Positions 1-32,068 of a DNA stretch of 64,000 nt are shown one piece after another. The notes below the pieces were generated by a model, which worked only from the letters and a program-made list of their open reading frames with translations, did no database searches and was not told the DNA's origin. Made by a program: the position numbers and the translations under genes. The DNA is from a virus. Each line of letters opens with the position of its first letter. The stretch's first letter is position 1. Location of the stretch: positions 32,001 through 96,000 of the IMG/VR virus record IMGVR_UViG_3300045988_168162; one strand, given 5' to 3'.

Positions 1-1008
1 GTGCTTTTGAAAAAGAGAACTTAATTCTTTCGTCAGTGCCGGAATGATTTGATTCAATACACTCAAAGCACCATATTTTTTATTGAGTCCTGTTTTCTTT
101 TTGGCGAGTTTTTCTTGCCATGCAGTATCCTTATGTACGAGGTTATGATGCTTTGCGCATAAGCCAACGATATTGGCAATTGTGTTGCTGCCATTTTTAT
201 GTTGCGGTACTACATGATGGTAATGTTCAATAGGTTTCTTACAAAACAAGCAGTGCTGTTCCTGCATTTCAGAAACAGCGCTCTCAAGATCCCCTTTTTG
301 ATAGAGTGGACCCTGTTGGTACTGCCACTTCTTGATAACGGGATTATCAAGCTGCATGAAAGCAAATTTGTTAACCTCAAGCACAACATCACTGATGGGA
401 AGGAATTTTTGAATTTTCTTAACCAAGTTGATGTGTGTTTTGAGCAACTGATTTGCAGTAGGCGTAAGCCAGCCTTCCGGTCTTGTGCGATTGTTGAACT
501 TTGCTTCTTTGTTCTTGATGCCAATGCAAAGGACTTCTTTCTCGCAACCCGGAAGATGGCGCTTAATGACGCCAATTTCTTTTGCACGCTTGCTGACGCT
601 GCCATTTTGGGCAGTGTCTTGCTTCACGCACTTTTTAGAAATAGTGCCATTGGCTTTTGCTCTCCGCTGACGACGGCATCGTCTACCATTGGTACGTCTT
701 GCACGGCGGGAATCCTTACGCTTTTTCATCAATTTCGGAATTTCCTTGTTACGGGTTTCCAGATGTGCGGTAAAGACTGCCGTGCCGTCCGTTTTAACAA
801 CAGCAACACCGATATTGGTTCTGCCGGGGTCGATGCCCAAGTAAAGCGGTTGCACCACATCGTCAGTTTCATACAACAGTTGAATGGTAAACGGCTTTGT
901 TCTTACGGCTCGTGCTTTCTGCTCTTTAAGAAGATGGCGTACATGCCCACAGCGAGTCGTAGGCATTAAAGGTTTACCGTCTTTATTAAGCACATATACA
1001 GTGGACAT
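1..1008 (-). CDS. iscB: IscB-like RNA-guided nuclease (OMEGA), N-terminal 336 aa; C-terminus lies beyond the window start
   Basis: Frame is open from ATG 1008 to base 1 (checked codon by codon; absent from the ORF track). Motifs: PLMP (KDGKPLMP), RuvC-I LGIDPG, Arg-rich bridge [16 protein letters not shown], Ruv[44 protein letters not shown] lies 6 nt upstream. Confidence 0.85.
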
Positions 1009-1230
1009 ATACGCCACCTCCTTTACGATAAGTCTCCCCTGCCGAAGCGGGAGGTTATGTTTCCCTTGGCTAGGTAGCAGCTTAGTAGTGTTGCAAGCTG
1101 GGAAAACCTGCAAGTACATCTGCTATCTTGATGTACAAAAGTACATCTGCCTGTGATATTGAAGGAACTTAGTGGAATGATATTATTTTATTAAAGTTCT
1201 TCAATACCCTACGACGATGTGCCGTTTCGG
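1009..1230 (-). ncRNA. Candidate IscB omega RNA (HEARO-type scaffold); boundaries approximate
   Basis: ORF-free 220 nt directly 5' of iscB on the same strand, where IscB omega RNAs are encoded. Hairpins: GATGTAC-TTTT-GTACATC, CAGCTT..AAGCTG, and UUCG-capped CTCCCGC-TTCG-GCAGGGGAG. Confidence 0.45.
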
Positions 1231-1239
1231 AAACCCGGA

Positions 1240-1317
1240 TGGAACTGGAGGGCCTCGAACCCAAAATCATAATCCCAGTTATGAGCTGGACGCACTAACC
1301 ATTTGTGCTACAGTTCC
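1240..1317 (-). tRNA. tRNA-like gene with CAU anticodon (Met or Ile2), aberrant variable/T region
   Basis: Acceptor GGAACTG/CAGTTCC, D arm GCAC-AAATGGTTA-GTGC, anticodon arm TCCAG-CTCATAA-CTGGG, T loop TTCGAGG. Only 3 clean T-stem pairs, and about 10 nt sit between the anticodon and T arms. Confidence 0.45.
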
Positions 1318-1409
1318 TTATAAAATGGTTCCGTTTTTATCCTTAACGGTTTCCGTAACAGATAAGTAAGAATGAAACAAATATAGAAGGAGGGGGATAC
1401 CAGCCCCCA

Positions 1410-1485
1410 TGGTCGAATAGGCGAAACTCGAATTCGCGGCCTCTTGCTCCCAGGGCAAGCGTTCTACCAGCTGAACTACTACTCG
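1410..1485 (-). tRNA. tRNA-Pro (anticodon UGG), CCA encoded, unusual C at position 33
   Basis: Full 76-nt cloverleaf folded by hand: CGAGTAG TA GTTC AGCTGGTA GAAC G CTTGC CCTGGGA GCAAG AGGCC GCGAA TTCGAGT TTCGC CTATTCG A CCA. Confidence 0.8.
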
Positions 1486-1491
1486 ATAATA

Positions 1492-1580
1492 AGAGAGAAC
1501 CTACCCCTGGATGACTCGAACGTCCGTTTTCAGCCTGCGCTGCTGTCCTTGCCTATTAGACGAAGCGGCAAGCTCTCTCT
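1492..1580 (-). other. tRNA-like element or degenerate tRNA (canonical T arm, non-canonical remainder)
   Basis: 7-bp outer helix AGAGAGA/TCTCTCT, hairpin TTGCC..GGCAA, T-arm-like GGACG-TTCGAGT-CATCC. A 10-nt insert precedes the 3' strand, and there is no U33-type anticodon loop. Confidence 0.3.
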
Positions 1581-2190
1581 GAATTGGATTGAAAGTGTTT
1601 TCTTCTTGGCTCCCATTTCTATAGCCAGGATTCCGATAGTGGCGAACTATCCTAGGTGTTGGTTTATCTGCTAATGTTTACAGACTCTATAGCAGACCAC
1701 ATGCGAGTGGTGAAACCTTTGGCACCTGCCGGTTATCTGCAGGCACACGCTTTCAATCTTGGCGGGGCACTATCCCCAGCCTGTTGGTGGGACCTGGACC
1801 TTGCGGCCAGCCCCCGAGTTGTGCGAGACCTAGATCTGAGCGAGGCGAATCCTGCCTTTGCCGTTTGGCATCTCGCGGTAACGGAACCTGAATTCATGCG
1901 GATTTCACTGGGCGATATCTAATAAATAGACACCGAAACCGTTCATCATCCGAAGCAGCTGGATTCCGTTTTGCCCTGATTCCGGCTTTCGGCAGGTGAT
2001 CGGCCTGCTATAGAACCAGGGCAATGGTGCGGAATGAATCTTGACCAGACAGCCCGCGATTGGTATGTATAATGCAATGGGTGTGGCGCATGGTCTGGGT
2101 GACAAATTTGAACACTCGGATATGACCTGAGTGTGGCGCGTGTTGCAAGGGAATTCTCGTGCCTGGAGGCAGCTGCACATTTCGATTATA
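1581..2190 (-). ncRNA. Large ORF-free structured RNA candidate between tRNAs (copy A of the repeated 5' module; ROOL/GOLLD-like context)
   Basis: No credible ORF or SD. Flanked by tRNA genes on the same strand. Begins with the 42-nt module shared with 24105-24146 and 25863-25904. TATAAT lies about 52 nt upstream of the module. Confidence 0.4.
2093..2134 (-). repeat. Conserved RNA module, copy A (hairpin ACACTC-AGGTCATATCC-GAGTGT plus AATTTGTCACCCAGAC)
   Basis: 37/42 identical to copy C. The stem difference A3/T21 versus T3/A21 is compensatory. CCAGAC pairs with GTCTGG at 2045-2050. Confidence 0.8.
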
Positions 2191-2321
2191 CTGACAAAGT
2201 AGTGGCATAATCCACTGGACAACCTGGGCCGTGACTGTCATTAACCCTTGGCAGAAACCAGGTATTACTTTCGCGAGAATCCTGTGGCGCTGCTGTGCGC
2301 TGTTGGTAAGATTCATTCCGT

Positions 2322-2396
2322 TGGAGCGGCTGAGGGGCGTCGAACCCCCGTCCCCAGCTTGGAAGGCTGGTATACTGGCCGTTGTACGACAGCCGC
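2322..2396 (-). tRNA. tRNA-Gly (anticodon UCC), CCA encoded
   Basis: 75-nt cloverleaf: GCGGCTG TC GTAC AACGGCCA GTAT A CCAGC CTTCCAA GCTGG GGAC GGGGG TTCGACG CCCCT CAGCCGC T CCA. Confidence 0.85.
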
Positions 2397-2838
2397 ATAA
2401 TAGGGCGGATTATTTTTACATGCTACCGCCTTCGCATGTTGCCCATATACCAGCCTTGAGGACAGCGAACTGTCGCACAGCCGGACATATGACCTTGTAC
2501 CAAGGATTTTTAAGAAACGTTGAGCGTGTGAACCGTAATCATTAAGCGTTGACGAAAAATAAACTTTGAATCTTGAGCGTTAAGCTGTTAGCGTTGAGCT
2601 GTTAGCTTTCCCATCAATTGTCTTCGTTGGGCTGCGGGCTTCACAAGTATCCGCAGCACGATCAATAATGACAACGAAGACCGTCTTTTCAGCAATCATA
2701 ATTTTAATGATATGGCAGAGTTCCAGATTTCAGTTTCAACTCAGTCCTGAACCCCAAGGGGACGGAGCGGCTGTGATTTATCGCTTTCGATATACAGGCA
2801 AGATCTATTTAATAACGAGTGTTAAGCTCGGAAGGATA

Positions 2839-3501
2839 TCAGTATTCGATGGTGATGGTTGTGGTGGCGTTGGAGACCGAGAGGGCAGCATCCAGATCGT
2901 TCTGGAAGGTGGTTACCATAGTCTCCAGCTCCTCGATGCGGGACGAGATCGTCTGCTTGTTCTGCTTCAGGCCATCGAAAACCTCGTAGGTATTGGCCTT
3001 GACGTAGGCTTCGCGGGCAGCTTCGACCTCTTTGGGATCGGCCGCCTTGGCCGCCTTATCGCCGCCGTACAGAGATGCGATATAGGAATCCGTGCGCTTA
3101 TCCAGCGTGGCGTTTTCATCCTCGACTTCCGATACGGCGTTGCTGTACTGGTAGCGCAGCTGGTTGAGCAGGTCTTTATACGGCTGGTAGCCAACCTGTT
3201 TCATAACGATAGCCTCGGCCACGGTCATGGTTTTATCGCCGACCTGGATCTTGGTGGTGGCGTTGGATACGGGGATGGCCATTTTAATGGCGTTGCGGCG
3301 ATGGATCAGCTCACTGATTTTATCGTAGGCGGAGACTGCCTTTGCGGTGAACTCTTCTGTGGGCTGACCGAGCAGCTTTTTGGCATTCATCTTGGCGCTC
3401 ATGCAGAAGTTGGCTTCACCAATGGCCTTGCCGATGCGCTTATCAATGGTTTTGAGCTCGACAAGGGCGCGGTGGATGGTCATGGTTTCGGTAGTGGACA
3501 T
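2839..3501 (-). CDS. Hypothetical protein (220 aa, helical/coiled-coil character)
   Basis: ORF track. SD GGAGG upstream of ATG 3501. The antisense ORF 2668-3525 is a low-complexity shadow. Confidence 0.7.
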   Translation of the reverse strand: MSTTETMTIHRALVELKTIDKRIGKAIGEANFCMSAKMNAKKLLGQPTEEFTAKAVSAYDKISELIHRRNAIKMAIPVSNATTKIQVGDKTMTVAEAIVMKQVGYQPYKDLLNQLRYQYSNAVSEVEDENATLDKRTDSYIASLYGGDKAAKAADPKEVEAAREAYVKANTYEVFDGLKQNKQTISSRIEELETMVTTFQNDLDAALSVSNATTTITIEY

Positions 3502-4751: not shown

Positions 4752-5177
4752 TTAGCAGGGAATCGCTACTTGCTCAGACTGTGGAGCCGGCATATTAGAA
4801 ATGATCATGAAAGGATTTTGTGCGAGGATAGCCGGGATGACACGCTGCCAATTTTCGTTTGTGAAATAGCCAATCGGCTCAGACAATTGAGAATGCAGCA
4901 GCACATCGCGGCTTTCCACGACCAGGGTGGAATCATAGATAAGGCCATCCACTTCTGCCGCGGCAAAATCTACGTGAGCAGGATTGCGGCGGCCAAAGCG
5001 CTTTGTTGTGAAAGGAATCACCTCGCACTGGCCGGAGAAGCGGTTGTAGCGATTGTTGCTGATGACCAGATAGGGGTGAAGACCAACATACTTGTGAGTC
5101 GGGCTGGGGGTGCCCTGTTCGACGTACCCCAGCCGGATCTCTCCCAATTTAGGGATCGAAGTGCCGGGTGTAAACAT
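4752..5177 (-). CDS. PemK/MazF-family endoribonuclease toxin-like protein
   Basis: GEIRLGYV..HPYLVISNNRYNRFSGQCEVIPFTTK..NPAHVDF..DSTLVVESRDVL aligns motif by motif with MazF/EndoA (RPVLVIQND.GNRFSPT..V..IT..LPTHV). Confidence 0.75.
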   Translation of the reverse strand: MFTPGTSIPKLGEIRLGYVEQGTPSPTHKYVGLHPYLVISNNRYNRFSGQCEVIPFTTKRFGRRNPAHVDFAAAEVDGLIYDSTLVVESRDVLLHSQLSEPIGYFTNENWQRVIPAILAQNPFMIISNMPAPQSEQVAIPC

Positions 5178-6056: not shown

Positions 6057-6310
6057 AGTGCGGAGATCATTTCGCGCAGATCGTCGACCATGTTGGCAAG
6101 GTCATCCTTTTGTTCTTCCAGCGTGCCGATTCCTTCTTCCATTTCGATACCGCGGTCAGACTGCTGCAAAGATTCCGGCATGTTATCAAAGGCTTCGGAT
6201 TCATCATCATAGATTTGTTCGAGCAGGATCTGCTGTTCTTCGAGTGCGTCAGCAATAGTGCCTAGCCGTTTTGCGACGGACTTGAGCTGCTTACGACGAT
6301 CGTTATTCAT
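6044..6310 (-). CDS. Hypothetical acidic protein (88 aa)
   Basis: ORF track; compact fit to neighbours. Confidence 0.55.
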   Translation of the reverse strand: MNNDRRKQLKSVAKRLGTIADALEEQQILLEQIYDDESEAFDNMPESLQQSDRGIEMEEGIGTLEEQKDDLANMVDDLREMISALQDF

Positions 6311-6325
6311 AATAGACCTTCCTTA

Positions 6326-7792
6326 TTATAATAGGGGAGCATTGTGCTCCTGCATAAAAAGTTCTGCGTTTCGGCGCAGGAGACAGGGATCATTTTGGAA
6401 CTTGCCATCTACCACGCATTGCAGAAGATGGTTAAAGCATTGGCCGAACAAAGGGCCAGGACGATAGCCCATCTCCATAAGATCATGACCATTGATGTGC
6501 AGGTCCTGGATGGAGAGCTTGCGCCCCTCGAAAATTGCGATAGCGAGATACAGGTATGTGATTTCGGCCTTGCGCATAGCGTTCATAGTGCCAAACTTGG
6601 TATAATCGACACCGTGGGCGTAGAGATCAGCAAAACGGACAGCCATAAGCAGCTGGGCATTGACAGGACCAAGAGCGGCCAGCAGACGATTGGCACAGCG
6701 GACGGTGGGTTCAAATTGGCGGTCGTGGTTTTTGATGAGCAGGACGATCCGTTCCCGTTCCGCGTTAGAAAACTTGAGGCGGCGAAGAATGTCATCGGCA
6801 AGTTCGGCACTTTTTTCAGCATGGCCGTAAAAGTGGCCGGTGCCGCCATCATCGACCGTATAGCATACTGGTTTGGCAATATCATGCAAAAGCATCGTTA
6901 TGCAGAGCTCGAACCAGTGAGCGTGGATAGCAGCGGTAAACTCGGGGAGTTTTTGGGTGACGCTCTTCAGTTCCACGACAGACTTTAGAATATGATCTTG
7001 CACGGTGTAGATATGATAGGGACTGTGCTGCTGAAAATCACGACTGAGATAAAGTTCCGGGATAATTTCTTCCAGTACGTCGATATAATCGAAAAGAAGC
7101 AGACTGAAATCATCGTGCTCATAGCTGGAGGTGAAGATTTTGCGGAGTTCGGACTGTACACGTTCGGCGGAAAGACCGACAAGCATCTGAACATTCGCAT
7201 GAATTGCTGCTTCGGTTTGTACATCGATCGTCAAATCATAGCTGACGGCAAAGCGCAGGGCACGTAAGATACGCAGAGGGTCCTCCTGGAAGCGTTTGTT
7301 AGGGTCACCAACGCATTTGATGAAATTGCTGCACATATCCGCATAGCCTTTAAAGGGGTCGACGATCCCAATCGTGTAAGTGCCTTCTTGGGATGCATCA
7401 TCATTCGGTAAAATTCTGCCAGCGATGGCATTCATGGTGAAATCACGGCGGGCAAGATCTTCTGTGATATCATCGACAAACTCGACCGTATCAGGATGGC
7501 GGTGGTCTTTGTAAATGCCGTCTTTACGCATGGTTGTGACTTCGTACTGGCCGTCCGGCATGATAACTGTAACAGTGCCATGCTTGATGCCGGTATCAAT
7601 GGTAGGAGAGAAGAGAGATTTTACCGTGGTTGGGTCGGCCTGGGTGACAACATCATAATCGTGCGGTGTTTTATCGAATAGAATGTCCCGCATACAGCCA
7701 CCAACAAGGTAGGTTTTATAACCGGCACCTTCTAACTGGAGGACAAGGGTAACAAGATCATGCGGCAGGGGGATACCTTGTAGTACAGGCAT
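6326..7792 (-). CDS. cca: CCA-adding tRNA nucleotidyltransferase with C-terminal HD domain
   Basis: LVGGCMRDILF..PHDYDVVT, RKDGIYKDHRHPDTVEF, EDLARRDFTMNAIA (class II head domain). HD motif MLLHDIAKP. Confidence 0.9.
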   Translation of the reverse strand: MPVLQGIPLPHDLVTLVLQLEGAGYKTYLVGGCMRDILFDKTPHDYDVVTQADPTTVKSLFSPTIDTGIKHGTVTVIMPDGQYEVTTMRKDGIYKDHRHPDTVEFVDDITEDLARRDFTMNAIAGRILPNDDASQEGTYTIGIVDPFKGYADMCSNFIKCVGDPNKRFQEDPLRILRALRFAVSYDLTIDVQTEAAIHANVQMLVGLSAERVQSELRKIFTSSYEHDDFSLLLFDYIDVLEEIIPELYLSRDFQQHSPYHIYTVQDHILKSVVELKSVTQKLPEFTAAIHAHWFELCITMLLHDIAKPVCYTVDDGGTGHFYGHAEKSAELADDILRRLKFSNAERERIVLLIKNHDRQFEPTVRCANRLLAALGPVNAQLLMAVRFADLYAHGVDYTKFGTMNAMRKAEITYLYLAIAIFEGRKLSIQDLHINGHDLMEMGYRPGPLFGQCFNHLLQCVVDGKFQNDPCLLRRNAELFMQEHNAPLL

Positions 7793-8798
7793 GGTAGTTT
7801 ACCTCCATAACGAGTTCTTCTACCCGTTTATAATCCGAGGTTTTGGGGAGCATGGTGTTGGCTTTGTCATATTGCAGGCGCTTTTCATACTGATCGATGA
7901 GATCGAAAAACTCCTGGTAGTAAGTGCCGTCCGGCTTTTGGAACTTACCGGCGCGGATCTCCAAGAGGAAATCGCGGTCGTTTTCGCGGTAGGTGTTGAT
8001 CTCGCCTTTTTCAAGAATATCAAAGCACATGAGATAAAGCCAGACCAGGTGCATGGCGTGCTTATTCAGATGCAGATCATCCTTTTTGCTGTTGCGCTTT
8101 CCGAGCTTGGCGTACTGGCCGATGACCGTGCCGAGATCAGAATTCATTTCCTTAAAGCTGCGGAGTGGATAATGTTTAAGGTCGCAGTCAATGAAGATTT
8201 CTGTCTCCATGCCCTCTGTTACGCCTTTGTCAATATATAGGTGAACGGAATCACCAGGGATATCGGCGTGCTGCAAACGGAAGTTTTCAAAGACAGATTT
8301 GCAGGTGCCTAGAATATGGCGCTCTTTTTCATCCTGGTGATAGTGGTCATGTGCCAGGGCATTTTGCAGGCGGCGCAGCTGCTGATTGGCATAACCGCCA
8401 AAAGCGTGGACGGCCGTTTGAGAGAGAAATAGTTTTTTATTTTCAATAAGCATCTGGCCCGCCGGAGTGATGTAAAAATACTGGTCCGGTTTATTGCCGA
8501 GAAGTTCGATCGTGTTGGGATTACAAGAGAGCAGTAGACTGACGAGCTTATTGAAACCGAAGATCGTAGTGTCGGTGCCAGTATCAACACGCTGCTCAAA
8601 ATTAGAGAAACCGAGAATATCCTGCGGGGAGTTCATGGCACAGCCGCGGACATCCACATCCGAACCTTCGACATTGGTGCCATAGGCGTGACTGCCGCCG
8701 AGCGTTAGGAACATAATGTTTTCGCCCAGGTGCGGATCGGTGCGCAAGAAATCATAAGCAGGGGACAAGATCAGGTCATCGAATTCGTTTTGTGTCAT
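7758..8798 (-). CDS. Pol-beta-fold nucleotidyltransferase, RlaP-like (RNA-repair-associated family)
   Basis: N-terminal LTLGGSHAYGTNVEGSDVDVRGC matches the GS-x-YG..SD-x-D signature. Overlaps the cca start by 35 nt. Confidence 0.55.
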   Translation of the reverse strand: MTQNEFDDLILSPAYDFLRTDPHLGENIMFLTLGGSHAYGTNVEGSDVDVRGCAMNSPQDILGFSNFEQRVDTGTDTTIFGFNKLVSLLLSCNPNTIELLGNKPDQYFYITPAGQMLIENKKLFLSQTAVHAFGGYANQQLRRLQNALAHDHYHQDEKERHILGTCKSVFENFRLQHADIPGDSVHLYIDKGVTEGMETEIFIDCDLKHYPLRSFKEMNSDLGTVIGQYAKLGKRNSKKDDLHLNKHAMHLVWLYLMCFDILEKGEINTYRENDRDFLLEIRAGKFQKPDGTYYQEFFDLIDQYEKRLQYDKANTMLPKTSDYKRVEELVMEVNYHACTTRYPPAA

Positions 8799-8810
8799 AG
8801 GACCTCCTTA

Positions 8811-9446
8811 TCAATCGAGTAATGCTTTGTCGATGGTTTGGAAATTGGCGCGGTGGATATAGAGCGCACGGCCGTCGATCATGAGTTTGGTTGTCTTGGG
8901 CAGATTTTGACAGACTTCCCAATAGACATTCTCGCCGCTGTAAGCGCAGATGGGATCACCGAGCTGGCTTTGGATAACGACAACAACGGGCTTACCGAAA
9001 GCGTTTTTATAAGAATTGACGGTTTTAGCAATAATAGGGTTCTCACCCAGACTGCCATCGGTCGTGCTGTGAATATCCTGAACCTGAAAGTCAACATCAG
9101 GCTCCAAGCCTTCCTCGGCAAAAATAACGGTGGAGCCGCAGTTATTGATCTGTTTACCATCTACCGTAATGGTAACGACGGACGACATCGTTTTTGTAAC
9201 GCCCCAGCCGCCATCACTGGTGTAGGTGTATTCCTTAACGACGTTGGCGTTCATATCAATTTTTGAACCGGCGACATCCATGAATTCTTCGCCGTCATTG
9301 GTATAGAACTGGCAATTATATGTATGGCCTGTGATGCTGCCATTCATATCATGGACGCCGCTTTCTACGTTGGCGCAGGAAGAGAGGGATGCCGCCAGGA
9401 CGATGACGAGTGCAAGCGATGTGATATGGTGTATTGTCTTTTTCAT
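8811..9446 (-). CDS. Lipoprotein (211 aa)
   Basis: Signal peptide plus lipobox: MKKTIHHITSLALVIVLAASLSSC. Confidence 0.7.
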   Translation of the reverse strand: MKKTIHHITSLALVIVLAASLSSCANVESGVHDMNGSITGHTYNCQFYTNDGEEFMDVAGSKIDMNANVVKEYTYTSDGGWGVTKTMSSVVTITVDGKQINNCGSTVIFAEEGLEPDVDFQVQDIHSTTDGSLGENPIIAKTVNSYKNAFGKPVVVVIQSQLGDPICAYSGENVYWEVCQNLPKTTKLMIDGRALYIHRANFQTIDKALLD

Positions 9447-23845: not shown

Positions 23846-24190
23846 TGTGTGATGTAAGCTGATAAGGTGGCTGCCTGGACCAGGAGGTGGTCCCAACTCG
23901 TTATTCAGAAGCTGCTGCTCAATTTTAGGAAGTCCTGGTACGATTTTCTGGGTACGAAGCACTGTTGATTGGACGTGTAAGTGAGCTAATCGCTATGGAC
24001 TCTGACGCTTTTGCCAGTCGTTAGTTGGCAGTAAACTCTGAATCTTCGCTGAAGAATCACTAGGATCGCGATGGCCATCGGCGACTCGCCGATCGTGGTG
24101 GGTGGACTGGGTAACAAATTCATACTCTCGGATATGACCTGAGAGTTTTTGCCTTGAACTACAAAGCAAAAGTAAACCTTACATAACACA
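23846..24190 (-). ncRNA. Structured RNA, copy B (345 nt, closed by a 13-bp long-range helix)
   Basis: 5' arm TGTGTTATGTAAG (24178-24190) pairs with CTTACATCACACA (23846-23858), 12/13 bp. G then UUUAC follow the 5' arm, as in copy C. Carries the 42-nt module. Confidence 0.5.
24105..24146 (-). repeat. Conserved RNA module, copy B
   Basis: 40/42 identical to copy C. CCAGTC pairs with GACTGG at 24014-24019, so the A-to-T change is compensated. Confidence 0.8.
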
Positions 24191-24213
24191 GTTTATAGAA
24201 TGTAAAAACATTT

Positions 24214-24377
24214 CTGCGGCATTACCGAGCGCTCCAGATGGGGGTCTGAAGCGCCGGCAAGAAAGGAAGAAAAAATGAACAAGGGCTGCATGGAATCACC
24301 ACAAACCATGCGCCCGGTGGCCGGACGAACAACCGAAAGAAAGGAAGAAACGGCTGAAGCGCCCGGTAACACCGCAG
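24214..24377 (-). other. RT-proximal element: 20-bp long-range helix enclosing 124 nt with two UUCUUCCUUUCUU tracts
   Basis: CTGCGGTGTTACCGGGCGCT (24358-24377, minus sense) pairs with AGCGCTCGGTAATGCCGCAG (24214-24233). 17 Watson-Crick pairs plus 3 G.U pairs that work only in the minus-sense RNA. Confidence 0.45.
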
Positions 24378-24398
24378 AAACGGCGGGGGAAAACTGAA

Positions 24399-25589
24399 TC
24401 AAGCTGCTTTGGGCTTGAGATCGTCAGAGATACAGGTGAGAAGATCGGCACCATATCTGGCGTTGTACTTTTGGATGACACCGGCAATGGTGGCGGGTTC
24501 TACACTAAGGTAGTAGCTGATATTGCCGCGGAACTTTTGGAGATCCTCTTCGTCCCATTTTTTGCCGTTGCGGCGGTCTTTGAAATAGGTTTCGATGGTA
24601 GCTTTAAGGATTTTGTGGTTTCGATAACCAACGGTAATATCGCCATCCTTATTGAGCATCAGACCGAGCATCCAGTTACGACCGGCGCGGGTGCCGAAGT
24701 GGGTCTTTTCGGTATTCAAGGTAAAGGGAGCATCGAGTTCATGAAGCATGGCGATCAGTTCCCGCTCGACCTTGCGGTAGTTGAAGAAGACCCGGCAGGA
24801 GATATGAATATCATCGGCATAGCGGGTGTAACAGATGCGGTCTGTGATGGGCGTGCCATCTGGGTTGACTTTGCCGCTTTGGAACTGGTTGAGCAGGCGG
24901 GCAAACTTATGGTCGAAGGGAATCATCATGACATTGGTGATGAAAGGGGAGAACGGGGTGCCCTGTGGCAGGCCGTTATTGAGAAACGCCAGGCTTAAAG
25001 CGCGGCGAAGCTCCCTGCGGCCGGTGGGGTCTGCCAGGATCAGGTTGAAGGGATAGATCTCTTCCATCTGTTTGAAGACAAAGTGCGGTGTGGTGGATGG
25101 GAAAAAGCCGTGGAAATCATAATGGCAGAAGTACCAGCTGCGGAACCGCTGATGCTTGATAACGGCATCCTTGGTGGAGCGGCCATTGACATAGGCAAAA
25201 GCGCAGGTGTGGTGGTCGGCAAACATCCAGCCGGACATCATATCCTTGAGCTGAGCCAATGCCTTTTTGAGTTCCGGGTGCGGGGCATCAATGGGACGCA
25301 TCTTGCCGCCGGTCTTTTTCGGGATCTCGAAATGATCGTAGAGTTCCCATTTGTTGGGGTAATCGATCAGATCCTTATAGCAGGTATTGAACATCTTGAG
25401 CTGGCTGATCATGGCGTCCAGGCAAGTGATTTTCATAATGCGCTCAGGAACTTTGTCGCATACAACGGTGCGGGTGGAGCCGTGACCGCCGGAACGTAAG
25501 GAATCCAGCGGAATATCGACACCGAGCATAAGTTCCTCGAACGTGATTTGACGAACGGTTTCGGGGGTATTGTAAGTTATGTATACCAT
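24399..25589 (-). CDS. Reverse transcriptase, retron-like (396 aa)
   Basis: FEIPKKTGGKMRPIDAP, GRSTKDAVIKH (NAxxH-like), YDFHGFFPS, LPQGTPFSPFITN, YTRYADDIHIS, RNWMLGLMLN (VTG-like). ATG 25589 follows GAGGT; the ORF-track N-terminal extension covers the structured RNA. Confidence 0.85.
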   Translation of the reverse strand: MVYITYNTPETVRQITFEELMLGVDIPLDSLRSGGHGSTRTVVCDKVPERIMKITCLDAMISQLKMFNTCYKDLIDYPNKWELYDHFEIPKKTGGKMRPIDAPHPELKKALAQLKDMMSGWMFADHHTCAFAYVNGRSTKDAVIKHQRFRSWYFCHYDFHGFFPSTTPHFVFKQMEEIYPFNLILADPTGRRELRRALSLAFLNNGLPQGTPFSPFITNVMMIPFDHKFARLLNQFQSGKVNPDGTPITDRICYTRYADDIHISCRVFFNYRKVERELIAMLHELDAPFTLNTEKTHFGTRAGRNWMLGLMLNKDGDITVGYRNHKILKATIETYFKDRRNGKKWDEEDLQKFRGNISYYLSVEPATIAGVIQKYNARYGADLLTCISDDLKPKAA

Positions 25590-25607
25590 AGTGGTGTACC
25601 TCGATTG

Positions 25608-25944
25608 TGTTTGTGATCTTGAAGGAATGATGCTGATCTTGCGAAGCTGATCAGCTTCCTGGATTAGCTCCATACAGTGGTGGAATTGGCTTAAAACTCC
25701 AATCAGACAACTGACTGATGTCCAATCTGCGGCTGCCAAGTCTATTACATGACCAATCGACATCGATTGCCCGCTAAGTTAGCTTAAAATGCCCTTGATG
25801 TGAGCGGCGGAACTCGGCGATTCTTGTGGCACCCCCAGATGCGCCTGGCGCGTGCCTGCCCGGTCTGGGTAACAAATTCGTACTCTCGGATATGACCTGA
25901 GAGTCGTTGCGATTTACAAAATGCAACGGTAAACATCACAAACA
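25608..25944 (-). ncRNA. Structured RNA, copy C (337 nt) directly upstream of the RT; msr-msd-like candidate
   Basis: Perfect 10-bp closing helix TGTTTGTGAT (25935-25944) with ATCACAAACA (25608-25617). G then UUUAC follow the 5' arm. Contains the 42-nt module and many local hairpins. Confidence 0.55.
25863..25904 (-). repeat. Conserved RNA module, copy C (ACTCTC-AGGTCATATCC-GAGAGT ACGAATTTGTTACCCAGAC)
   Basis: CCCAGA pairs with TCTGGG at 25834-25839. Confidence 0.8.
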
Positions 25945-25993
25945 AATTTAAATTACAAAGTGTATTATACGGACGATATATTACATAGTGATA

Positions 25994-26677
25994 TTACATG
26001 GCCGTGATAGCTCCTTCCGTGTCGAGATTGAAAGGCGCAACCAGGATCAAATCCTTGATCTTGCCATCCGTGACAAACTTTTGGAAGTTGATAACGGTCA
26101 TGGTGGCAGCCATGCGAACCGTGGGCGCTACACCAAGGACCTCGCCACAGGCGGAACGGGGCACCTCAGCGGTCGCTTCCTCGTGGGTGAAGTTCATACT
26201 GTCGAGCAGTGCTTTCTTGGCCTGCGGGTCACGCCAGTCGGCTGCATAAAGCTGGGCATCAAACAATGCCGTGCGGACATCAAACATCGCCTTGATATTG
26301 GCGTTGTACTGATTGCGCTTGACAATGTCGCGCCGGATCGCAATATCATCCACGGCCAGGAACACATAGCCTGCCAGCGGCTCACCATGCCAGCCATCGG
26401 GTTTGACCTTGACGGTTTCATTACAGGTCAGATTGATATTACCAAGAATATCTCGCAAGGCATCGACCTTTTTCATGCCGACATGGTCATCGAAGAACAT
26501 CTGGTTGACGAGGTTTTTCTCCTCGACCTTGTCCATATCCCAAAGGGTGAACTTGGTGAGACCGTAGCGGGCCAGCAGCTCGGCGATGGTAGAACCGACA
26601 GAACCGCAGCCAATAATGTGAATGGGAGCGGTGATCTTGGCGGGGTCGAAAACCTCGCGGCTCTTATTTAAATTCAT
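25994..26677 (-). CDS. ThiF/MoeB/E1-like adenylyltransferase (227 aa), PRTRC-ThiF-like
   Basis: ATG 26677 follows AGGAGG and overlaps the JAB stop by 14 nt. Rossmann motif IHIIGCGSVGSTIAELLARYG; DMDKVEEKNLVNQ corresponds to the ThiF D-x-D-x-V..NL.RQ motif. Confidence 0.75.
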   Translation of the reverse strand: MNLNKSREVFDPAKITAPIHIIGCGSVGSTIAELLARYGLTKFTLWDMDKVEEKNLVNQMFFDDHVGMKKVDALRDILGNINLTCNETVKVKPDGWHGEPLAGYVFLAVDDIAIRRDIVKRNQYNANIKAMFDVRTALFDAQLYAADWRDPQAKKALLDSMNFTHEEATAEVPRSACGEVLGVAPTVRMAATMTVINFQKFVTDGKIKDLILVAPFNLDTEGAITAM

Positions 26678-27296
26678 CGGGGACCTCCTGACCGTAGGTG
26701 TACCAATCGTACTGCTTATAGTGGTTGTACTGGTTGAAATAGATGGGCGGCTGAACGACCGGCAGCGATTCGACCTTGACCATGGTTTTGACTTCATCCA
26801 GGAAGGACGGGTCAAAAGTATCGTAGGTAAGAAGAACTTCGTCCTGTTCACGAATCGTGCCATGATCGTAGATGTGGGCTGTGTAGTAGAGATCCTTGTT
26901 CCAGATCATGAAGATATAGAACTGGTTATCCGGGATGTGGCGTTCCTCCTGGCTTTGGATATCCGTACCGGAGGGGTGCGTGTCCATATAGACGTGGCTG
27001 TGACCGTGGTAGTGCAGGTCATCAAAGTTGGGATGCTCAAAGTACCAGCGGCCATATTCCTCCTGATCGACCACCACCGTAGCAGCGGTGACCGTTTGCG
27101 GATAGACCGTGATATCATAGACCTCCCAGCCATCCTGGATGGGGCGGGTAAGACCATGCCAGCCGATTTCGGTGTTATACTCGTTCAGCAGAGCGAGCTG
27201 TTTGTTCCAGGCATTGGCCGTGAAGTGGATATGAATGGGTTTCTTTGCGGGTGCCTTGACGGCGGGGGCCTTTTCATTCGGGCTCGTTTTGGACAT
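26664..27296 (-). CDS. JAB/MPN+ (JAMM) metallopeptidase-like protein
   Basis: HSHVYMDTHPSGTD fits HxH-x7-S-xx-D, with an upstream Glu in NTEIGWHG. Strong SD GAAAGGAGG. Confidence 0.7.
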   Translation of the reverse strand: MSKTSPNEKAPAVKAPAKKPIHIHFTANAWNKQLALLNEYNTEIGWHGLTRPIQDGWEVYDITVYPQTVTAATVVVDQEEYGRWYFEHPNFDDLHYHGHSHVYMDTHPSGTDIQSQEERHIPDNQFYIFMIWNKDLYYTAHIYDHGTIREQDEVLLTYDTFDPSFLDEVKTMVKVESLPVVQPPIYFNQYNHYKQYDWYTYGQEVPDEFK

Positions 27297-27299
27297 GGC

Positions 27300-28673
27300 T
27301 TACGCCTCCTTTCCGTTCATTTCATCACAGACGATCTGCATGGCTTCCTTGAATGTGATATCGGTGCCATCTTGCGTGCGGATGACCTTGCCACTGCCGA
27401 GAACCAGCTGCTGCGTAACACGACCCATGGCCCAAGTCTCAGACAGGGACACATTGGATGCGCTTTGCTGCGTGATAGCCAGGGCAGCGATATAATCATG
27501 GTTGCGCTCGGCATCTGCAAGATCGCCTGCATAGCCGCCCAGGCAGGTGGCAAAAGCGATATGCGGGTTATTGATATAGTCCGCAGCAATAGGCTCCATG
27601 GGATCATCGGCTTCCACAGCGTGGACAGCGGCATCTCTGTTGATGATGTAAGTGGCGGCCATCTTGATCGTGAACCGATGATCAACAAAGACAGCGCGGT
27701 AGAACGCGGTCATCTGATCGTTATCATACGGGTTATCGATTTCATGGGAGCCGCGGCCGATGCTGGAATAACCATCGAGAACGTCAGGGTAGTTCAGCAC
27801 ATAAGAATCGACCATGTCCTCATCATAACAGGAGAGGGTGGTGAGCACCGTGTACTGGATATAACCACTGCCGATGCCGATATGATCGATACGGAATCCG
27901 CCGCTGCGCAGGTAATCATAGATTTCCTGGCGAAGCTGATTCGTGTCGGTTTTGCGAAGGTAGGCAATCTTTGCGTTGTACTCTGCAATGAGACGAAGAT
28001 GATCGGAGATGCGGCGCTGGTAGCTCTTGATCTCTTGTTCGGCTTCCTCGATATTGCGGGAGGCGGAGCGGATCTGATCAGCCTGTGCGTTGACGGTGAT
28101 CTCCTGGGCGGCAGAACGATACTCGATCATATCGTAAGCGTACTTAGCGATAAAGGAAGCCGTGGCGTCCCAGAAATCTTTGCGCGATGCTGCGTTATCT
28201 TTTTGACTGATCTTGTAGACCAGCTGAAGCAGCGCGTATTCATCGGGCTGAAGCTTCTGTTCACCCTCGAACAGCCAGGGCAGGAGCATGGGGATGGCAC
28301 TAATCACACGAAGCCAGATCGCATGGCGTGGACGTACCGCCTGGTCAACATTCACGACGGCCCTGCGCTTATCGGGCAGGATAAAGACCTTGCTGTGCTC
28401 CGGGGCGATATAGTTTTCAAGCCGGGTCACACTGGTAAGGTTACTGGTAACAGGGAACGGAACCGTCCTGAGATAAAGGAACTCCGCATCCGTATCACCG
28501 TTATGGCCGTTTTCAAGATGAAGCGTTTCCGTTCTGGGGGCAACCACACACATCCAGACGGCCTGGAGGACGAGCAGATCATCACCGCTGACGGCGTAAT
28601 ACTGGTCACTGGTGAACCGCCCCTGCATGGAGCTTTCAAACGCTTTCGAGAGGATTCTTTCGTTGATTTCCAA
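27300..28673 (-). CDS. Large cassette protein of unknown function (457 aa, central coiled coil)
   Basis: TTG start follows AAAGGAGTG. Sits between the small Gly-terminated protein and JAB. Confidence 0.6.
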   Translation of the reverse strand: MEINERILSKAFESSMQGRFTSDQYYAVSGDDLLVLQAVWMCVVAPRTETLHLENGHNGDTDAEFLYLRTVPFPVTSNLTSVTRLENYIAPEHSKVFILPDKRRAVVNVDQAVRPRHAIWLRVISAIPMLLPWLFEGEQKLQPDEYALLQLVYKISQKDNAASRKDFWDATASFIAKYAYDMIEYRSAAQEITVNAQADQIRSASRNIEEAEQEIKSYQRRISDHLRLIAEYNAKIAYLRKTDTNQLRQEIYDYLRSGGFRIDHIGIGSGYIQYTVLTTLSCYDEDMVDSYVLNYPDVLDGYSSIGRGSHEIDNPYDNDQMTAFYRAVFVDHRFTIKMAATYIINRDAAVHAVEADDPMEPIAADYINNPHIAFATCLGGYAGDLADAERNHDYIAALAITQQSASNVSLSETWAMGRVTQQLVLGSGKVIRTQDGTDITFKEAMQIVCDEMNGKEA

Positions 28674-31958: not shown

Positions 31959-32068
31959 TTCGTGTTCACTCCTTGATTGCTTTATCATAAATTTATTGAT
32001 TGATAGGGTAAAAGAAAAGCACCCTTAGTCCAGGATGCTGGCGGTTGCGACACTGGTCTCGCGGAGCG

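Follow-up and report, generated by a model that had tools for sequence, protein, structure and literature searches.

The gap between tRNA-Gly(UCC) and tRNA-Pro(UGG) in the tRNA operon of a virus known from IMG/VR record IMGVR_UViG_3300045988_168162 appears to be a string of self-contained structured RNA modules, a reading to which we assign a probability of roughly 0.6. The stretch analyzed, positions 32,001 to 96,000 of that record (64,000 nt), is referred to as the window and its numbering is used throughout. The gap comprises positions 1486-2321 (836 nt) of the minus strand. Read in transcript order, it contains a candidate retron-type non-coding RNA (ncRNA) termed copy A, a core RNA (2029-1585) that joins a 5′ domain, DUF3800-XI and a six-helix 3′ block, and an optional tRNA-like element (Table 1). 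Judged by its strong covariation, the core is a new conserved multi-domain RNA of about 450 nt that includes DUF3800-XI. Copy A is, on the evidence of its sequence, a paralog of two ncRNAs that flank the phage's retron-like reverse transcriptase (RT).

Table 1. Features of the tRNA operon and of the RT locus, in window coordinates.
Feature	Positions	Strand	Evidence or details
tRNA-Met	1240-1317	minus	ARAGORN; Rfam
tRNA-Pro(UGG), downstream boundary of the gap	1410-1485	minus	ARAGORN; Rfam, 61.5 bits
Optional tRNA-like element	1492-1580	minus	Conserved closing stem; canonical T loop
Closed six-helix 3′ block, most conserved part, 176 nt	1585-1760	minus	Alignment A7
DUF3800-XI motif (RF02975)	1765-1814	minus	Rfam, 44.3 bits (gathering threshold 37.8), E = 1.3e-6 (whole window)
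5′ domain of the core RNA	1816-2029	minus	Alignment A8
Candidate retron-type ncRNA, orphan copy A (module 1)	2030-2321	minus	Helix in the minimum free energy fold; gap classes; shared hairpin module
43-nt shared module	2092-2134	minus	Hairpin ACACUC-AGGUCAUAUCC-GAGUGU, then UCAAAUUUGUCACCCAGACC
tRNA-Gly(UCC), upstream boundary of the gap	2322-2396	minus	ARAGORN; Rfam tRNA, 56.6 bits
ncRNA B, downstream of the RT	23847-24189	minus	a1 24189-24178, module from 24145, a2 23858-23847 (11/12 bp)
Retron-like RT, 397 aa, presumed partner of copy A	24399-25592	minus	Pfam RVT_1, 4e-16; retron hidden Markov models
Cognate ncRNA C, upstream of the RT	25608-25943	minus	a1 25943-25934, module from 25903, a2 25617-25608

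Boundaries, Coding Content, and Strand

The first ncRNA element of the gap begins 1 nt past the 3′ end of tRNA-Gly. A sequence-only reading of this DNA had proposed an ORF-free, hairpin-rich stretch that ends at 2190. The stretch is indeed non-coding, but it begins at 2321, directly after tRNA-Gly, so that a limit at 2190 loses about 130 nt of the first element. The open reading frames (ORFs) in 1486-2321 are mechanical, reach at most 105 aa and overlap on both strands, as had been noticed before. None of them is conserved: the length and position of the longest ORF differ in each relative, and in some minimal homologous gaps (L087, L071, L075) it spans just 47-57 aa, at positions other than those in the window. 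The 836-nt sequence folds at -283 kcal/mol, compared with -258 ± 7 for dinucleotide shuffles (z = -3.6). The covarying helices are rich in G·U pairs that are compatible with a minus-strand transcript only, and the RNA is therefore assigned to this strand. A scan of the minus strand within 1486-2321 found no terminator-like site. The minus-strand promoter scan in the gap was unconvincing, and a TATAAT at about 2183-2178 was rejected as an internal promoter, as it is not kept in the L004-type version.

The Core RNA

The 3′ block carries the clearest signal. In alignment A7 (19 distinct sequences) its six helices comprise 35 pairs, 99.8% of the cells are paired and 6 pairs have changed on both sides, while slid controls reach 35-45% paired cells and 0-2 doubly changed pairs. 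The outermost helix exemplifies this, since P1 (AAGAUUGAAAG/CUUUCAAUC) alternates with AAGAUGAAAAG/CUUUUCAUCUU. A covariance model of the block (R1) gives 193 bits on the window. It also recovers a distant copy, found with nhmmer (L052:6083-6260), over the full length of the model (47.6 bits, E = 1.5e-9). The helices of this copy are rebuilt: P1 is AUAAUGAC/GUCAUUAU, P3 GCAAC/GUUGU, P4 UUCC/GGAA and P5 UAGG/CCUA. The phage that bears it has 36% GC, a 22-tRNA array and no other similarity to the window.

The 5′ domain was aligned together with the DUF3800-XI motif (alignment A8, 16 distinct sequences). This alignment contains 46 pairs in 8 helices, with 98.1% of cells paired and double changes in 16 pairs (70 cells); none of 500 shuffles attains its covariation score, and slid controls give 34-50% paired cells. 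In the domain, stem P1′ contains an inner hairpin with the invariant loop CYGAUCA, and a long-range helix, AACGGAAU (1970-1963) with GGUUCCGUU (1888-1880), encloses three helices. An insert of about 65 nt (~1879-1816) occurs in the window's lineage only.

The DUF3800-XI motif was defined near DUF3800 genes (Weinberg et al., 2017, PMC5737381). It accounts for about 10% of the conserved RNA and here consists of a GNRA-capped hairpin and a GC-rich hairpin without a U tail, and it also occurs in the homologs L004, L050, and L052. A pattern for the motif retrieves 16 IMG/VR loci. Nine of them show the order promoter, hairpin, motif, U tract, and in the three that were read (L046, L048, L056) a DUF3800-like ORF comes next. 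The other seven, the window included, lie within phage tRNA arrays, have no U tail and have no recognized DUF3800 gene nearby; in three of these (L050, L054, L055) the motif stands between tRNA-Gly(tcc) and tRNA-Pro(tgg), as it does in the window. In the 64-kb window, where Pfam covered part of the ORFs, a crude motif search found no DUF3800 gene, with no ORF showing xIDESG at its N terminus. The DUF3800 literature offers no function that accounts for the motif.

Two points temper the case for the core RNA. The covariation counts represent few independent events, since the sequences come from about 4-5 lineages plus L052 and so have low diversity, and no gene association points to a function of the core.

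Modularity and Distribution

Conservation in related phages, on which the sequence-only reading had made its proposal depend, is found in at least 23 distinct homologous gaps. All of them run from tRNA-Gly(tcc) to tRNA-Pro(tgg), on phage contigs of 124-233 kb that come mostly from the human gut, and identity within the main group is 60-95%. The IMG/VR scans behind this set are sequence-pattern scans, started from the DUF3800-XI pattern and widened by further patterns. By size, the gaps form classes of 451-454, 509, 533, 542, 590-600, 689, 745-749, and 836-839 nt. When they are aligned, entire modules are present or absent, and the common core consists of the 5′ domain, DUF3800-XI, and the 3′ block; inserts of about 60 and about 150 nt occur in lineages other than the window's. 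The comparison of 23 gaps lends no support to the proposal of one large ncRNA and shows a chain of modules gained and lost independently.

A pattern for the 3′ block has no match in 185,579 bacterial and archaeal species genomes. Looser block patterns in IMG/VR retrieve main-group members, L052 and two chance coding matches (L095, L096) only, and a metagenome match (L090) was likewise rejected as chance. Among the INPHARED phage records, matches to the window region are confined to the tRNAs.

Copy A and the Retron-Like Reverse Transcriptase

In the minimum free energy fold, copy A is closed by a perfect helix of 13 bp that resembles the a1/a2 pairing of retron ncRNAs (2320-2308 with 2042-2030) and extends to 22 bp, with two bulges, through 2307-2299 and 2053-2043. 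Inside this helix a variable domain of about 140 nt follows a1, then comes the shared hairpin module, and a short hairpin stands ahead of a2. The inner domain exists in two versions whose closing stem covaries (GGAUUCUCG/CGAGAAUUCC vs. GGAUUCUUUGU/ACAAAGAAUUCC). Copy A occurs only in the two largest groups of gaps (745-839 nt) and is absent from the classes of 451-689 nt.

The shared module links copy A to the RT locus. The earlier recognition of copy A as a conserved RNA module was correct, and the window holds two further minus-sense copies, so that the repeat is found at 2140-2092 (A), 24152-24104 (B), and 25910-25862 (C). Over 43 nt, copy A is 73% and copy C 92% identical to the reference copy B, and copy A has a compensatory change in the stem. 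The stem variants CUCUC/GAGAG, CCCUC/GAGGG, CUCUU/AAGAG, and CACUC/GAGUG, the last from copy A, are all Watson-Crick paired. In IMG/VR, matches to the module pattern are confined to the two flanks of RT genes of this family and to A-type positions. Copy A itself is found there on two contigs only, both of which also carry the RT, and nine core-bearing contigs without copy A have no module match.

The RT belongs to a family with 2296 homologs at E ≤ 1e-10, many of whose best matches lie on long contigs (up to 306 kb). Its best match among the PADLOC models is retron RT_II-A (2.6e-45), and retron-type RT models account for all 25 matches listed. It is accompanied by one ncRNA on each side; a2 of ncRNA C stops just ahead of the RT ribosome-binding site, and the a1/a2 pairing of ncRNA B in the window was read by eye. 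Relatives whose RT is 61-70% identical likewise have module-bearing non-coding stretches on both sides of the gene. These RT-linked ncRNAs have two things in common only, the hairpin with its tail and a terminal inverted repeat. The a1/a2 repeats measure 9-16 bp, are lineage-specific in sequence and lie about 260-290 nt past the module (for example TGTTTGTGAT/ATCACAAACA, TTTTTTTGTTTGAT/ATCAAACAAAAAAA, AAAACTACAAAGCAAA/TTTGCTTTGTAGTTTT, and AAAAATCAATTTGT/ACAAATTGATTTTT). In one relative (L010), tRNA-Pro and tRNA-Met directly follow an RT-linked ncRNA.

Retron msr-msd architecture and classification have been described by Mestre et al. (2020, PMC7736814). Like retrons, the RT locus combines an RT whose best models are retron models with ncRNAs that are bounded by a1/a2, that place conserved 5′ hairpins before a variable region and whose a2 lies just before the RT start. 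In contrast to them, it is phage-encoded and has two ncRNAs per RT locus plus an orphan copy 22 kb away in a tRNA operon. The ncRNAs are also long (about 290-345 nt), and an msDNA (multicopy single-stranded DNA) is only predicted.

Several observations weigh against copy A as a retron template. Of the features expected of a retron ncRNA, the closing inverted repeats and the shared stem-loop are present and adjacency to the RT is absent: copy A lies about 22 kb from the RT gene, unlike copies B and C, which adjoin it. The first hairpin is replaced by the 140-nt domain, and the GUUUAC + hairpin-1 context of B and C is lacking. In B and C a G stands directly behind a1, whereas in copy A it comes only once the helix has been extended to 22 bp. 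Covariation does not support the a1/a2 helix of copy A, which shows uncompensated single changes in L068, L079, and L074. As to the enzyme, its best NCBIfam match, retron_St85_RT (1.4e-50), reaches 172 bits, below the curated cut-off of 235. By eye, it has MLG where retron RTs presumably have VTG.

The same distance, missing context and uncompensated variants would suit a different role for the 43-nt module. Instead of an RT handle, it could be a hairpin for processing, regulation or protein binding, for example an RNase site or antitermination signal, that marks the three non-coding regions by coincidence; copy A would then be no retron template. We consider this unlikely, since in IMG/VR the module stays beside this RT family or in A-type copies of RT-bearing genomes, and every copy, A included, is bounded by terminal inverted repeats, a hallmark of retron ncRNAs.

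Further observations concern the RT locus and copy A themselves. The RT lies in an operon (23847-28673, minus strand), kept in L009 and L010, in which genes for two unknown proteins (about 450 aa and about 170-210 aa) and a 227-aa ThiF/E1-like protein precede ncRNA C, the RT, and ncRNA B. No known retron effector was recognized among these neighbors (the ThiF/E1-like and the two unknown proteins). Conservation extends to the roughly 200 nt (24398-24190) that separate the RT stop codon from a1 of ncRNA B and that contain a polypyrimidine tract (UUUCUUCCUUUCUU). Directly after a2 of ncRNA B, an ORF of about 55 aa (~23817-23650, minus strand) with a good ribosome-binding site encodes two CxxC pairs (MMKSITYTLAFVDGTVCYECLPD...CPFCPEDEFF). 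In copy A, the word GCGCCACA occurs three times within 2299-2092 of the minus strand, as AGCGCCACAGG, CGCGCCACACUC, and UGCGCCACACCC.

The tRNA-Like Element

The last module before tRNA-Pro has a closing stem of 14-16 bp (1580-1567 with 1505-1492, AGAGAGAGCUUGCC/GGUAGGUUCUCUCU) in the place of an acceptor stem. Its T arm had been described as textbook, which is true of the canonical T loop (GUUCGAGUC) and not of the T stem, where GGACG/CAUCC forms 4 of 5 bp and leaves a C·A mismatch; the arm is not recovered by RNAalifold. Neither Rfam RF00005 nor ARAGORN calls the element a tRNA, and the relaxed ARAGORN run that had been suggested as a check leaves it without a call even at -ps90. Among near-identical phages, the equivalent of the anticodon arm differs. 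The window and L061 types have a stem of 4 bp capped by a GNAG tetraloop (CAGC-GCAG-GCUG vs. UAAC-GUAG-GUUG). L070 and L004 have 5 bp and a 7-nt loop instead, and ARAGORN then gives a weak tRNA-Ser(gct) or tRNA-Asn(gtt) call; the L070/L085 version receives the weak tRNA-Ser(gct) call. The window's element, a tRNA-derived hairpin, has no usable anticodon loop and cannot decode. It is found in the 542-, 689-, 749-, and 836-839-nt gap classes only, and in gaps without it 24 nt separate the 3′ block from tRNA-Pro.

Relation to Known RNA Families

At gathering thresholds, Rfam finds three tRNAs and DUF3800-XI in the region, and nothing else. A permissive search of 2 kb (window 1000-3000; relaxed filters, E ≤ 10) gives no match in the gap to ROOL, GOLLD, tmRNA (transfer-messenger RNA), RNase P, group I, hepatitis delta virus (HDV)-like, or YrlA models. 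The homologous gaps of L050 and L054 have no match to ROOL, GOLLD, tmRNA, RNase P, or group I (E ≤ 1), and ARAGORN calls no tmRNA in the window. The negative is meaningful, because the identical search recovers a full-length ROOL (324.7 bits) in the tRNA array of L052. By eye, the start of the 3′ block (AGAUGAA..CAGAnnCCGGCU..GUUUCnCC) resembled the 3′ end of RNase P RNA. This candidate was rejected because AGAUGAA is one strand of the covarying P1, there is no conserved CR-I-like partner and Rfam gives no match.

The suggestion of a ROOL- or GOLLD-like large RNA survives in part. The locus type, structure, conservation and non-coding nature agree with it, and the gap RNAs, like ROOL and GOLLD, are large, ORF-free, heavily structured and placed in phage tRNA islands. 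Family membership fails: the Rfam check that the sequence-only reading had named (ROOL RF03087, GOLLD RF01998, tmRNA, RNase P, group I) yields no match at E ≤ 10, the helix layout is another one, the RNAs are smaller (core ~450 nt) and their modules are separable. The gap is not ROOL or GOLLD, and it is probably not a single RNA. The two families nevertheless meet in L052, whose tRNA array holds a true ROOL plus a copy of the 3′ block.

A rather improbable account is that of a single continuous ornate RNA of about 830 nt, whose domains would be the modules and which would act as one unit in the manner of ROOL or GOLLD, for instance by forming an RNA-only multimer. GOLLD, too, is conserved in its 3′ part and variable in its 5′ part and its linkers, which sometimes hold tRNAs, and it occurs in phage tRNA islands (PMC12286853). 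Moreover, no tRNA or terminator-like site divides the modules on the minus strand, and two invariant elements, the self-complementary GAUC within the loop CYGAUCA and a GAAUUC, could be kissing sites. However, chance alone would give about 8 palindromic hexamers in 545 nt, and the palindromic loops GAUC, GAAUUC, and AGAUCU as dimer sites are an idea only. The modules also occur separately: most phages have the core without copy A, the tRNA-like element is optional, and L052 has the 3′ block alone, 4 kb from its DUF3800-XI motif. To this is added the lack of any ROOL or GOLLD match at E ≤ 10 by a search that scores 325 bits on the ROOL of L052.

Two other systems invite comparison. The tRNA cluster of phage T4 produces species 1 and 2, small stable RNAs of about 120-140 nt that are co-transcribed with the tRNAs and freed by tRNA-processing enzymes; the gap RNAs are likened to them by this general description only. 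Theta (HDV-like) ribozymes lie directly after gut-phage tRNA genes and are involved in tRNA end formation (PMC10879173). In contrast, there is no HDV-like match in the gaps of the window, L050, or L054, and the slot directly after tRNA-Gly is occupied by copy A here and by the 5′ domain in other phages.

The gap might also be a tRNA-precursor spacer that is degraded after processing, conserved merely by recent common descent. The close relationship within the main group (60-95% identity) would suit such a spacer, yet this explanation is very improbable given 22 pairs with compensatory double changes and less than 2% unpaired cells, a block kept with every helix rebuilt in an otherwise dissimilar 36%-GC phage, and a sub-motif that is already a curated Rfam family. 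That the region encodes one or more small proteins can be set aside almost completely, since the mechanical ORFs of 88-105 aa overlap on both strands, vary with the relative and shrink to at most 57 aa in minimal homologs, and since module indels and pairwise compensatory substitutions fit RNA rather than codons.

A Possible Pathway

Under the preferred reading of the gap as a string of modules, the whole array would be transcribed as one minus-strand precursor. Processing of the 3′ end of tRNA-Gly could set one end of the ncRNAs, and others could be set by RNase P, which would cut both tRNA-Pro and the tRNA-like element at their 5′ ends; the latter element may serve as a processing or stabilizing handle. 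The RT would bind copy A in trans through the shared hairpin and reverse-transcribe it from the stretch just ahead of a2, giving a short msDNA-like product. The core RNA would act in trans as a stable folded RNA, in the functional class of ROOL, GOLLD, and the stable RNAs of the T4 tRNA cluster; our best guess is a decoy or scaffold in a tRNA-centered conflict between phage and host. Taken to its full extent, this account describes an RNA family of gut-phage tRNA operons that was hitherto undescribed, is modular and has the ~176-nt six-helix block as its hallmark. One lineage of it would be fused to a spare retron template, and one RT would serve ncRNAs from three loci, with tRNA processing as the delivery route for one. 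This full version is tentative.

Neighboring Genes and Other tRNA Arrays

A gene for the RNA-guided nuclease IscB on the minus strand starts at 1008 and runs off the start of the window (Pfam RRXRR, 8e-51, and HNH; NCBIfam guided_IscB, 203 bits, above the cut-off of 175). The 231 nt of non-coding sequence between it and tRNA-Met (1009-1239) are the expected site of an omega RNA; Rfam gives no HEARO match in window 1-1239. In relatives, tRNA-Met is followed by additional tRNAs (Gln or Ser) in its place, so IscB looks like a lineage-specific insertion. Upstream of tRNA-Gly, an intergenic region of 442 nt (2397-2838) contains the plus-strand repeated words TTGAGCGT, TTAAGC, and GTTAGC (2521-2610), as well as a promoter-like site on the minus strand (2674-2646, TTGTCA-17-GATACT). 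A few kb from the tRNA array, at 4752-5177 and 6326-8798 (minus strand), ORFs encode a PemK/MazF-like toxin, a CCA-adding enzyme (PolyA_pol + HD), and a nucleotidyltransferase of the RlaP family. Their presence suggests an investment in tRNA repair.

The tRNA-Pro end of the gap varies among relatives. In L071, L093, L097, and L075, the tRNA in the slot of tRNA-Pro(UGG) has a body that is similar by eye and an anticodon UGA (called Ser) or UUG (called Gln), which looks like anticodon switching within one phage tRNA lineage. Many relatives have a GC-rich hairpin (GGGAUGCCCCCUCAUCCC) after tRNA-Pro. From 92 nt in the window, the gap between tRNA-Pro and tRNA-Met grows to about 230-240 nt in several relatives (L050, L054, L055, L060) and to 730 nt in L004 (1821-2551), and it may hold further non-coding modules.

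Phage tRNA arrays are hubs for ncRNAs. The array of L052 (L052:1-13337, 22 tRNAs) carries ROOL (7644-8224, 325 bits), DUF3800-XI (2200-2246) and the 3′ block (6083-6260). It also has weak matches below threshold, HDV-like directly after two tRNAs (2867-2923, 8798-8866) and YrlA-like at 7014-7121, and a small basic ORF (MSHRRKMEEKHRLKH...) just upstream of the 3′ block. In L050, a RAGATH-33 match (1282-1408; 121.7 bits, gathering threshold 120.4) lies between tRNA-Leu and tRNA-Thr, with no counterpart in the window.

Biological Significance

ROOL and GOLLD are known by their structures rather than by their function; the RNAs of the gap add an independent family in the same niche. DUF3800-XI, hitherto an orphan entry in Rfam, emerges as part of larger RNAs in phage tRNA arrays. 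The modules gained and lost between near-identical phages constitute natural deletion mutants for tests of function. A phage retron-like RT with two flanking ncRNAs and, in this lineage, a third copy in the tRNA operon would, if true, be an unusual retron layout.

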